DNA from: a virus
Taxonomy: Duplodnaviria; Heunggongvirae; Uroviricota; Caudoviricetes
Direction: 5' to 3' (one strand)
IMG/VR virus record: IMGVR_UViG_2671180636_000004
Length of the DNA: 5,046 nucleotides
The position numbers and the translations under genes were made by a program. Numbering within the stretch: the first letter of the stretch is position 1; the number at the start of each line of letters is the position of its first letter. Shown here piece by piece: positions 3,955-5,046 of the stretch. Under the pieces are notes generated by a model. It had not been told where the DNA came from. It was given only the letters and a program-made list of their open reading frames with translations, and did no database searches.

Positions 3955-4107
3955 CAGAAGTCACCGGAGTTGTTCAGGCTCCGATGAGAGGATTATGGCG
4001 GATTGATTACGATAAATCAAAACTATCTTGAAGCCAAAACAGTGATCTTCGCTTTAAAAACCTTGTATACTTTCACCTAATCACAGCCAGAACTATGGAT
4101 CTAACCA

Positions 4108-4485
4108 ATGACCAACAAAGAAAACAAAGATAAATATATTAACAAGTTCAAGAAAGAGCTTTCAAAATATATACAACCAACTGCTGGAGTGGACATTCAA
4201 TTATTTAACTCTAAGGATGGTGGTGGTGTAATTAAAGCCACTTTGAATAGAAGTGGAAAAAGAAAATCATCTATTGCTGGTAATTTTACTAAATTAGGTG
4301 AGGCAATTACCTCGAGTGGGCAGAGGGTTTTTGGTGGTGATCTATCAAATGTGAATTTTTACGGAACAAATACGATTTTTGATGGAGATACAATATTTTT
4401 AATTAAATCACCTGATTCAGAGGAGTGGTCATCACAAAAAGCTTCCAAAGACGTAGAGGGCATCGTATTTGGAGGGAAAAAATGA
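4108..4485 (+). CDS. Hypothetical protein, 125 aa, lysine-rich N-terminus and Gly-rich motifs (GGGV, FGGD, FGG); no recognisable family; first gene of the AT-rich cassette
   Basis: Uninterrupted 126-codon frame in AT-rich DNA, where stop codons are frequent by chance, so a long open frame is unlikely to be random. The upstream in-frame codon 4102-4104 is TAA, so ATG 4108 is the first possible start. Only a weak SD-like GGAT lies 7 nt upstream. No hydrophobic N-terminus, so probably cytoplasmic. Confidence 0.6.
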   Translation: MTNKENKDKYINKFKKELSKYIQPTAGVDIQLFNSKDGGGVIKATLNRSGKRKSSIAGNFTKLGEAITSSGQRVFGGDLSNVNFYGTNTIFDGDTIFLIKSPDSEEWSSQKASKDVEGIVFGGKK

Positions 4486-4567
4486 TTAACATTACTACTA
4501 AGGATGCACTCAAGTCAGTGGTGAAGTAAGAGATCTAGTAATTCTTCTTGAAACTGATGGAAAAACG

Positions 4568-4909
4568 GTGTCTGATTATTTGCAGCCAATCCCTCCCAAA
4601 AAAGATACACACTGGAGCATGATTTTCATTCCGGTAGCAATTTATATACTACTTAATCTTGTATACATTATTGCTCACCCATTATTTCCTGAAAAATATC
4701 TAAAAACATCAACATCTATATTTCTATTCATTTCCTTCATATTAAGTGCAATAGTAGCATATTTTGTTTTCCATAAGCATAAATCTGCCACTCTATCCAT
4801 ATGCAGCTTAGTGTTCTTAGTGTTAATTGTAGGTGCTAACGTAGGGTTTATCAGTTACAGCGACCTAACACAAAAAGCGACGCAAAAATTAGATAGTTTG
4901 TCTAAATAA
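4568..4909 (+). CDS. Hypothetical small integral membrane protein, 113 aa from GTG 4568 (or about 96 aa from ATG 4619), three predicted transmembrane helices; second gene of the AT-rich cassette
   Basis: Open frame in AT-rich DNA on the same strand, 82 nt downstream of the previous ORF. Three hydrophobic stretches of about 19-20 residues (MIFIPVAIYILLNLVYIIA, SIFLFISFILSAIVAYFVF, LSICSLVFLVLIVGANVGFI) are separated by short charged loops. The first in-frame start is GTG 4568 (weak GGA 6 nt upstream); the alternative ATG 4619 has GGAG only 1 nt upstream, so the true start is uncertain. Confidence 0.6.
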   Translation: MSDYLQPIPPKKDTHWSMIFIPVAIYILLNLVYIIAHPLFPEKYLKTSTSIFLFISFILSAIVAYFVFHKHKSATLSICSLVFLVLIVGANVGFISYSDLTQKATQKLDSLSK

Positions 4910-4916
4910 TTATGTT

Positions 4917-4937
4917 GCCATGCGAAGTATGCATGGC
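4917..4937. repeat. Inverted repeat (7-bp arms GCCATGC / GCATGGC, 7-nt loop) 8 nt downstream of the cassette's second ORF; possible weak terminator or binding site
   Basis: Read directly from the sequence. No adjacent T-tract, so a terminator role is uncertain. Confidence 0.35.
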
Positions 4938-4951
4938 TGCATGTCTGCCTT

Positions 4952-4964
4952 CCATTTAAAATGG
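4952..4964. repeat. Perfect 13-bp palindrome CCATTTAAAATGG; function unknown
   Basis: Read directly from the sequence (6-bp arms around a central A). Confidence 0.35.
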
Positions 4965-5046
4965 GCTAAGACCTATAACCCTAAATATTATTCTTTATTA
5001 TCTTCTTTACCACTTCGGTGATGCTGCCAACTTACTGATTTAGTGT

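Follow-up and report, generated by a model that had tools for sequence, protein, structure and literature searches.

We examined a 5,046-nt stretch of DNA from a virus record of the class Caudoviricetes (IMG/VR IMGVR_UViG_2671180636_000004), hereafter the window, and focused on the open reading frame (ORF) at positions 4568-4909 of the + strand, which starts with GTG and encodes 113 amino acids (aa). The window was a fragment of a DLP12-type lambdoid prophage, with an ompC/nmpC-like porin gene on the + strand and antiterminator Q (quuD), ylcG, rusA, ybcO, ninE and the NinB-like ybcN on the - strand. Its G+C content drops to 31-37% at 3970-4970, compared with 50-60% in the flanks, and this AT-rich stretch carries two + strand ORFs, one of 125 aa at 4108-4485 and the ORF at 4568-4909. 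We use our own labels for the genes of this cassette, geneA (125 aa) and geneB (142 aa), and found that the ORF at 4568-4909 is almost certainly the 3' four-fifths of a frameshift-inactivated geneB, that is, a recent pseudogene. The features of the cassette in the window are listed below, with the basis of each in brackets.

4040-4107, + strand: upstream region of the cassette, with a -10-like box TATACT at 4066-4071 that is preceded by TG (comparison of the window with loci L027, L003 and L008)
4108-4485, + strand: geneA, encoding the 125-aa soluble partner, intact in the window, phrog_18061 (ORF list, PHROG, alignment)
4471-4484, + strand: ribosome-binding site GGAGG (4471-4475) and ancestral geneB start ATG (4482-4484), which overlaps the geneA stop TGA (4483-4485) (genome annotations, duplex energy)
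4482-4529, + strand: leftover 5' end of geneB, 15 codons (MINITTKDALKSVVK) followed by a premature TAA at 4527-4529 (ORF reading, alignment)
4506-4507, + strand: 1-nt deletion, a missing G, which puts geneB out of frame (comparison to E. coli A7 and CV839-06; same deletion in locus L026)
4508-4909, + strand: out-of-frame remainder of geneB, residues 10-142 and stop, of which the ORF at 4568-4909 is the portion from the first GTG (tblastn, PHROG)
4616-4684, + strand: transmembrane helix 1, residues 46-68, with invariant P51, N59 and Y62 (hydropathy, AlphaFold2, alignment)
4712-4771, + strand: core of transmembrane helix 2 at residues 78-97, then a conserved basic loop, HKHK, at 98-101 (hydropathy, AlphaFold2, alignment)
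4790-4858, + strand: core of transmembrane helix 3, residues 104-126, with the conserved GANVG motif, in which N120 and G122 are invariant (hydropathy, AlphaFold2, alignment)
4911-4943, + strand: stem-loop GCCATGC...GCATGGC just past the geneB stop, probable terminator and right edge of the cassette (conservation, fold energy)

Of 5426 complete E. coli genomes, 46 (0.85%) matched segment 4000-4920 of the window in a megablast search, each with at least 99.6% identity. The matched segment was 922 nt long in all 46 of them, compared with 921 nt in the window, and the second gene was annotated there as a protein of 142 aa (WP_000608370.1) that starts from the ATG equivalent to window position 4482. 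In particular, a single G was missing in the window at 4506/4507, where GATGGCAC had become GATGCAC according to the alignment with E. coli A7 and CV839-06. The deletion splits codons 1-8 of geneB from the rest of the gene and causes the premature stop at 4529 in the ancestral frame. Residues 10-142 were 100% identical to the E. coli protein by tblastn in the frame from 4508; this frame is open from 4502 to 4909, and the ORF at 4568-4909 corresponds to residues 30-142 of the 142-aa protein.

The same allele was found in an independent IMG/VR assembly (L026), which carries the identical G deletion, and at least 100 Shigella sonnei contigs have the exact 113-aa product annotated as a hypothetical protein; for these two reasons, the window almost certainly comes from S. 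sonnei, and the G-deletion allele is fixed in the S. sonnei lineage. The recurrence of the allele in that assembly and on those contigs also ruled out a sequencing error. A programmed frameshift was ruled out as well, since no slippery heptamer accompanies the GG doublet that holds the deletion, and the intact homologues all keep one uninterrupted frame. The N-terminal loss in the S. sonnei ORF comprises residues 1-29, or residues 1-46 if the ATG at 4619 is used as the start.

With regard to translation signals, the GGAGG lies 6 nt before ATG 4482 and forms a duplex of -9.8 kcal/mol with the anti-Shine-Dalgarno sequence, and the ATG and the geneA stop overlap as ATGA (4482-4485). The corresponding duplex at GTG 4568 reached -3.3 kcal/mol, and the GGAG before ATG 4619 directly abuts the codon, which is a poor spacing. 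An earlier note on this DNA had left the start ambiguous between GTG 4568 and ATG 4619, and had described a short charged N-terminal tail. Neither codon is the ancestral start, which is ATG 4482; the apparent ambiguity arises because the ORF is the out-of-frame remainder of geneB, and the tail is an artefact of the 1-nt deletion relative to the 46 E. coli genomes. The placement of the ORF in an accessory cassette by the same note was borne out by the genome loci, in which geneB is the second gene of a two-gene cassette in lambdoid prophages.

The ORF is a member of the PHROG 16940 family by descent, yet it is a truncated pseudogene. We detected the hallmarks of the family in it, namely the three transmembrane helices with N59, the KHK loop and the GANVG motif, and also the neighbourhood of the family, with a PHROG 18061 gene adjoining upstream through the ATGA overlap. 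The PHROG 16940 profile (142 positions), however, covered the ORF at profile positions 30-142 only, and a full-length match to this profile or to WP_000608370.1, including the N-terminal MINITTKDGTQ.SGEV.DL.ILLE..GK.VSDYLQP, was not obtained with the ORF of the window. As both the translational coupling and the near-invariant N-terminal domain have been lost, geneB is most likely non-functional in the window. The chief gain for the window is a correction, and the gene boundaries, the start codon and the partner gene are now defined.

We then considered the protein encoded by geneB. The 19-residue Kyte-Doolittle averages peaked at 2.49, 2.52 and 2.41 around residues 46-66, 78-97 and 104-126 of the full-length protein, respectively, all well over the usual membrane threshold. 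The AlphaFold2 model based on the family alignment (mean pLDDT, the predicted local confidence score, of 77) had long helices at residues 46-68, 71-100 and 103-141 with pLDDT 85-92, and a low-confidence N-terminal domain with a beta-hairpin (2-5, 11-14) and a helix (16-25), followed by a Pro/Gln-rich linker. The three hydrophobic segments that the earlier note had reported within 4568-4909 were recovered by both approaches. Its description of a small three-helix membrane protein therefore stands for the helices, and does not stand for the gene model, as the ORF so delimited is not the whole gene.

The most conserved part of the protein precedes these helices. Residues 1-36 (MINITTKDGTQvSGEVrDLvILLEtdGKtVSDYLQP) were near-invariant, more so than the helices, in an alignment of 17 clusters with 59-99% identity. 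The ratio of nonsynonymous to synonymous substitution rates (dN/dS) over the first 36 codons was 0-0.07 despite 13-21 synonymous differences, so the constraint acts on the protein. In total, 21 positions were invariant down to relatives with 34% identity, including K7, D8, S31, Y33 and P36 in the N-terminal domain, P51, N59 and Y62 in helix 1, K99 in loop 2, and N120 and G122 of GANVG in helix 3. The geneB frame itself was conserved down to 34% identity with dN/dS 0.07-0.19, and the hydrophobic ORF is therefore no accident of AT-rich DNA. In every member, the six-residue loop 2 had two or three positive charges and no more than one acidic residue, with two positive and none acidic in nearly all of them, and loop 1 was neutral or acidic. 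Given these charges and the positive-inside rule, we infer that intact GeneB would be an inner-membrane protein with an N-in/C-out topology and a cytoplasmic conserved N-terminal domain. The two invariant intramembrane Asn residues and the GxxxG-like GANVG motif suggest that GeneB helices may associate with each other or oligomerise.

A separate observation concerned a protein of 571 aa (P0036), in which four tandem repeats (…NVRDLVKKFENEGLTVEDYLHKACLKQ…) at residues ~290-450 resembled GeneB residues 12-46 with E = 3e-5. The protein was otherwise unrelated, and we judged a true relation unlikely compared with a coincidence of helical repeats. The repeats hint that the helix-turn-helix-like segment of the N-terminal domain may be a more widespread small motif.

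We found geneA directly upstream of geneB in every recovered geneB locus, that is, in 23 prophage loci (from E. coli, Klebsiella, Enterobacter and IMG/VR) and in nine plasmid or metagenome loci. The two genes overlapped by 4 nt, with the exception of 1 nt in locus L008 and 17 nt in the plasmid variant (L009-L012). They also diverged in parallel, with identities of 100/92/76/67/35% for geneA and 100/90/66/66/34% for geneB, and both were under strong purifying selection (dN/dS 0.07-0.19 over both genes; 0.07-0.08 for geneA). We conclude with high confidence that geneA and geneB form a single functional unit. GeneA had neither a signal peptide nor a hydrophobic segment, we recognised no DNA-binding motif and no clear double-glycine leader in it, and its AlphaFold2 model was poor (pLDDT 58.5). 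The best PHROG families were 18061 for geneA (E = 9e-85) and 16940 for geneB (E = 2e-74); both are annotated as of unknown function, and membership is thus silent on mechanism.

The borders of the unit could be traced by comparison of divergent copies. Upstream of the cassette, ~36 nt before the geneA ATG, t.GTAT..T was shared by four sequences that otherwise diverge there (the window, L027, L003 and L008); as the consensus scan gave no complete sigma-70 site, we regard the promoter as putative. On the other side, the stem at 4911-4943 (fold energy -19.6 kcal/mol, z = -2.4) was kept in four divergent lineages while its flanks varied, and the sequence flanking the cassette diverged immediately beyond the -10-like box and the hairpin. 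The unit has the anatomy of a moron, with a putative promoter, its genes and a probable terminator, and is self-contained, AT-rich and horizontally mobile.

As for the rest of the window, E. coli A7 (locus L001 2309-7019) was collinear with it, with 96-100% identity across the unmasked blocks. The two ends of the window are ends of IS1 copies:

1-38, no strand assigned: end of a second IS1 copy, opposite to the end at 5017-5046 and oriented alike, at the left edge of the prophage fragment
5017-5046, no strand assigned: IS1 end that truncates the 3' end of replication gene P beside the cassette

Because both ends of the window are opposite IS1 ends in the same orientation, the ~4.98-kb piece of prophage from the porin gene to the cassette is either composite-transposon-like or a leftover of IS1-mediated deletions. 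The IS1 junction in L026 was identical to that of the window. The N-masked runs at 112-568, 1563-2063 and 2881-2911 exceeded the corresponding stretches of E. coli A7 by 79, 166 and 24 nt, respectively; the excess reflects either mask length that differs from the true length or insertions in the window (e.g. rusA would be 8 codons longer than the 120-aa reference). The Rfam scan of the window gave no match.

In the prophages of Escherichia, Klebsiella and Enterobacter, the cassette always had the replication genes (O/P or DnaB-type) on one side and the nin region (YbcN, NinB or DUF1367) on the other. It shares its strand with the cI-like repressor and converges with the early-right operon (L001-L008). 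In other DLP12-like prophages (L031-L033) the interval between P and ybcN was a variable cargo site: in O157:H7 it held emrE together with the ybcK recombinase, in O26 it held a P22AR-like gene and a HEPN-domain pair, and strain 042 had a YajG-family lipoprotein there. A colicin-like gene and its immunity gene adjoined the cassette in one prophage (L008 5297-6980). A further pair, an ImmA/IrrE metallopeptidase and a DUF4411 gene, was located beside the cI-like repressor in cassette-bearing E. coli prophages (L001 10446-12094), and the Klebsiella relatives had BstA (KilA-N/BstA_C), NYN or CbiA/AAA_31 genes at that position, which suggests that these phages have another slot for accessory or defence genes.

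Outside prophages, a distant pair (128 aa and 137 aa, with 34-35% identity) was the sole cargo of Col-type enterobacterial plasmids of ~3.5 kb, whose backbone consisted of a Replicase (PF03090/PriCT_1) and Rop. The pair overlapped the 3' end of the Replicase gene by 7-11 nt (L010 1081-2781; L036 69-1250), so that rep, geneA and geneB on these small plasmids appear to be one translationally coupled operon; the L036 variant was placed between rep and a MobC/NikA-like mobilisation gene. The family is tiny, and a profile search of 1.84 billion representatives recovered seven proteins. We found no relative among the GTDB species representatives, no nucleotide match in the phage GenBank collection and no protein match for the plasmid variant in PLSDB, and a literature search with the RefSeq accessions matched nothing.

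The allele of the window was not the only disrupted one. A C deletion was found within helix 1 of geneB in L030 (6001-6425), and protein P0033 showed, at the protein level only, a frameshift near codon 41 of geneB, at the A-run CCCAAAAAAGAT. Frameshifted or truncated geneB alleles were represented by P0033, P0035, P0016 and P0017, some of them with altered C-termini, and geneB may be recurrently inactivated. Disruption of geneA was found once, by an IS1 inserted after codon ~48 with geneB intact (L002 6109-7260, E. coli CV839-06), which indicates that geneA can be lost, at least through an insertion with a polar effect on geneB.

Our favoured overall account, to which we would give an even chance by analogy with known systems, is that the window holds a dead geneB copy of a Rex-like, membrane-acting exclusion or addiction pair. 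Under this account, cytosolic GeneA would act on the cytoplasmic N-terminal domain of GeneB, and the contact would control a membrane-perturbing activity of GeneB, as in lambda RexA/RexB or mycobacteriophage gp30/gp31. This activity could protect the lysogen or the plasmid host, either through phage exclusion/abortive infection or through addiction, and in the window the module would be dead or at best crippled. That the intact pair has a defence or exclusion role is a suggestion we hold at rather less than even strength. The more specific proposal is tentative: the intact cassette would be an anti-phage or addiction system of two components that has so far gone unrecognised, and in which GeneA gates GeneB through the N-terminal domain, with the S. 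sonnei copy as a natural loss-of-function allele.

Several observations weigh against the Rex-like account. The search with Pfam and NCBIfam, on both proteins and their distant relatives, gave nothing that reached the cut-off; the sub-cut-off matches (7TMR-DISM_7TM, YfhO, ECF_trnsprt, VIT1 etc.) were inconsistent from member to member and were discarded as generic hydrophobic matches, and a "VIT1/CCC1 family" label given by one source was dropped for the same reason. The best matches of the two proteins in PADLOC-DB v2 were non-significant (E = 0.17 to a 4TM effector and E = 0.02 to PDC-S06). The Foldseek search of the GeneB model against PDB and BFVD had no match below E = 0.1, with holins among the non-significant BFVD matches, and sequence-profile searches of PDB found nothing. 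The role of membrane-depolarising effector or exclusion factor that the earlier note had raised is still a sensible hypothesis for intact geneB, but these homology and structure searches lend it no support. In addition, the RexB family was absent among the Pfam matches at E <= 1 of four family members, and PADLOC was likewise empty in this respect. The N-in topology of GeneB has the positive-inside rule as its sole basis, and the promoter evidence consists of the conserved -10-like box alone, with no full promoter in the consensus scan. The slot between P and ybcN also houses non-defence cargo (emrE, the lipoprotein). Finally, GeneB is a 3-pass protein with an extra soluble domain, unlike the Rex-like membrane components described so far, which are 4-pass (PMC7542560).

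The alternatives differ in what the truncated ORF, or the intact pair, would do. The truncated protein of 113 aa (from GTG 4568) or 96 aa (from ATG 4619) might still work as a stand-alone membrane effector in S. sonnei: the frame is open over 4502-4909, residues 10-142 remain identical to the E. coli protein, gene callers annotate both the 113-aa and the 96-aa product, and ribosomes that end at 4529 could re-initiate 39 nt further on. We consider this improbable, as the ribosome-binding sites of both starts are poor compared with that of ATG 4482, the lost segment is under stronger constraint than any other part of the protein and no intact family member is without it; further decay would not be expected yet, as the lineage is young and the event recent. 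For the intact pair, the main rival to the Rex-like account is a toxin-antitoxin or addiction module, which would stabilise the prophage or the plasmid, and not act in phage defence, by means of a membrane toxin (GeneB) and its antitoxin (GeneA). The translationally coupled order of an antitoxin-like gene and then a toxin-like gene agrees with this, as do the ~3.5-kb plasmids that carry the pair as sole cargo fused to the rep operon, and the independent disruptions, which fall mostly in geneB (window/L026, L030, P0033, P0035, P0016, P0017) and once, through a polar IS1, in geneA. The count of disruptions is small, however, and uncorrected for sampling, no likeness to a toxin-antitoxin family was found in Pfam, NCBIfam or PADLOC, and no DNA-binding motif was recognised in GeneA. 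We regard this module as unlikely, though a serious candidate, and toxin-antitoxin and abortive-infection roles can coexist.

The other three roles were ranked less likely because of the points against each of them. A small polytopic inner-membrane protein, as predicted for GeneB, on the lysogeny strand of temperate phages would suit a non-lethal superinfection exclusion, with GeneB blocking DNA entry at the inner membrane, as T4 Imm, P22 SieA and HK97 gp15 do, and GeneA as an accessory. The Pfam families Imm_superinfect and SieB were not matched, and a strictly required, co-evolving cytosolic partner together with a near-invariant and probably cytoplasmic N-terminal domain fits a regulated effector better than a passive blocker, so that this role seems decidedly improbable. 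We give still less credit to a bacteriocin and immunity pair, with GeneA as a toxic peptide, secreted or released, and GeneB as a three-helix membrane immunity protein, although the immunity proteins of the pore-forming colicins E1 and Ia are three-helix membrane proteins, GeneB resembles small immunity proteins in size and helices, and the small Col-type plasmids and the colicin-like pair beside the cassette in L008 provide a suitable context. GeneA lacks a signal peptide, a clear double-glycine leader and any bacteriocin domain, there is no lysis or export gene nearby, the Colicin, Colicin_im and microcin-immunity models of Pfam were unmatched, and a near-invariant soluble N-terminal domain is unusual for immunity genes. 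A replication- or maintenance-associated membrane factor, which would for example anchor or regulate the replicon, is equally hard to credit. The overlap of the plasmid pair with the Replicase gene in one operon and the position of the phage pair next to the O/P or DnaB modules point towards it, but the phage cassette is on the strand opposite to the replication genes, several ORFs separate them in the Klebsiella phages, and most related prophages and Col plasmids are without the pair, which is therefore dispensable for replication.

Should the intact pair turn out to serve defence or addiction, a compact (~0.9 kb) design of sensor and membrane effector would join the Rex-like class, together with a natural knockout in S. 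sonnei, and its GeneA/GeneB architecture would be unlike that of all 4-pass Rex-like systems. The intact pair, which is very small and tightly conserved, clearly moves among lambdoid prophages and tiny plasmids, and we recognised no relatives of it; a pair with no measurable effect would be just another orphan moron.

Among known systems, class I holins such as lambda S105 have ~100 residues, three transmembrane helices and a polar C-terminal tail. GeneB is similar to them in size, helices and tail, but has an extra N-terminal domain and a probable N-in/C-out topology, the opposite of S105. No Pfam holin family was matched, and the cassette is outside the lysis region, on the strand opposite to the late genes, with the lysis genes essD/rrrD several kb away, beyond Q and on the other strand. 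Closer in organisation are lambda RexA/RexB, an abortive-infection system, and the RexAB-type pair PP_5643/5644 from Pseudomonas putida, which are also prophage pairs on the repressor strand, with a soluble gene followed by a gene for a polytopic inner-membrane protein of ~140 aa. In these pairs, the membrane component is proposed to be the effector and the cytosolic partner its trigger (PMC12894663); for lambda, with RexA as sensor and RexB as membrane channel, and for the Sbash and Butters pairs, an ion-channel effector is proposed (PMC12894663, PMC7542560). We found no sequence similarity to the Rex pairs and no fold similarity for the GeneB model: the RexB type has four helices, whereas GeneB has three and a conserved N-terminal soluble domain, RexA has 279 aa compared with 125 aa in GeneA, and the cassette is at the P/nin junction and not in the immunity region.

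Two-gene defences have also been described in the mycobacteriophages Sbash and Butters, whose gp30 is cytoplasmic and gp31 in the membrane, and in the Gordonia phage CarolAnn (PMC7542560, PMC6426596). Like geneA and geneB, these are orphan two-gene prophage cassettes of a cytoplasmic and a membrane protein without homologues of known function, and they are expressed in lysogeny (PMC7542560, PMC6426596). Their hosts belong to an unrelated phylum, we detected no homology to them, their membrane proteins are 4-pass, and defence has been demonstrated for them, whereas the present cassette is known from its sequence. Since the membrane components of the Rex, Sbash and Butters pairs are 4-pass and none resembles GeneB in sequence, we take the resemblance as a possible working mode and not as membership. 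The intact cassette is a reasonable candidate addition to the two-component, membrane-acting modules of prophages.

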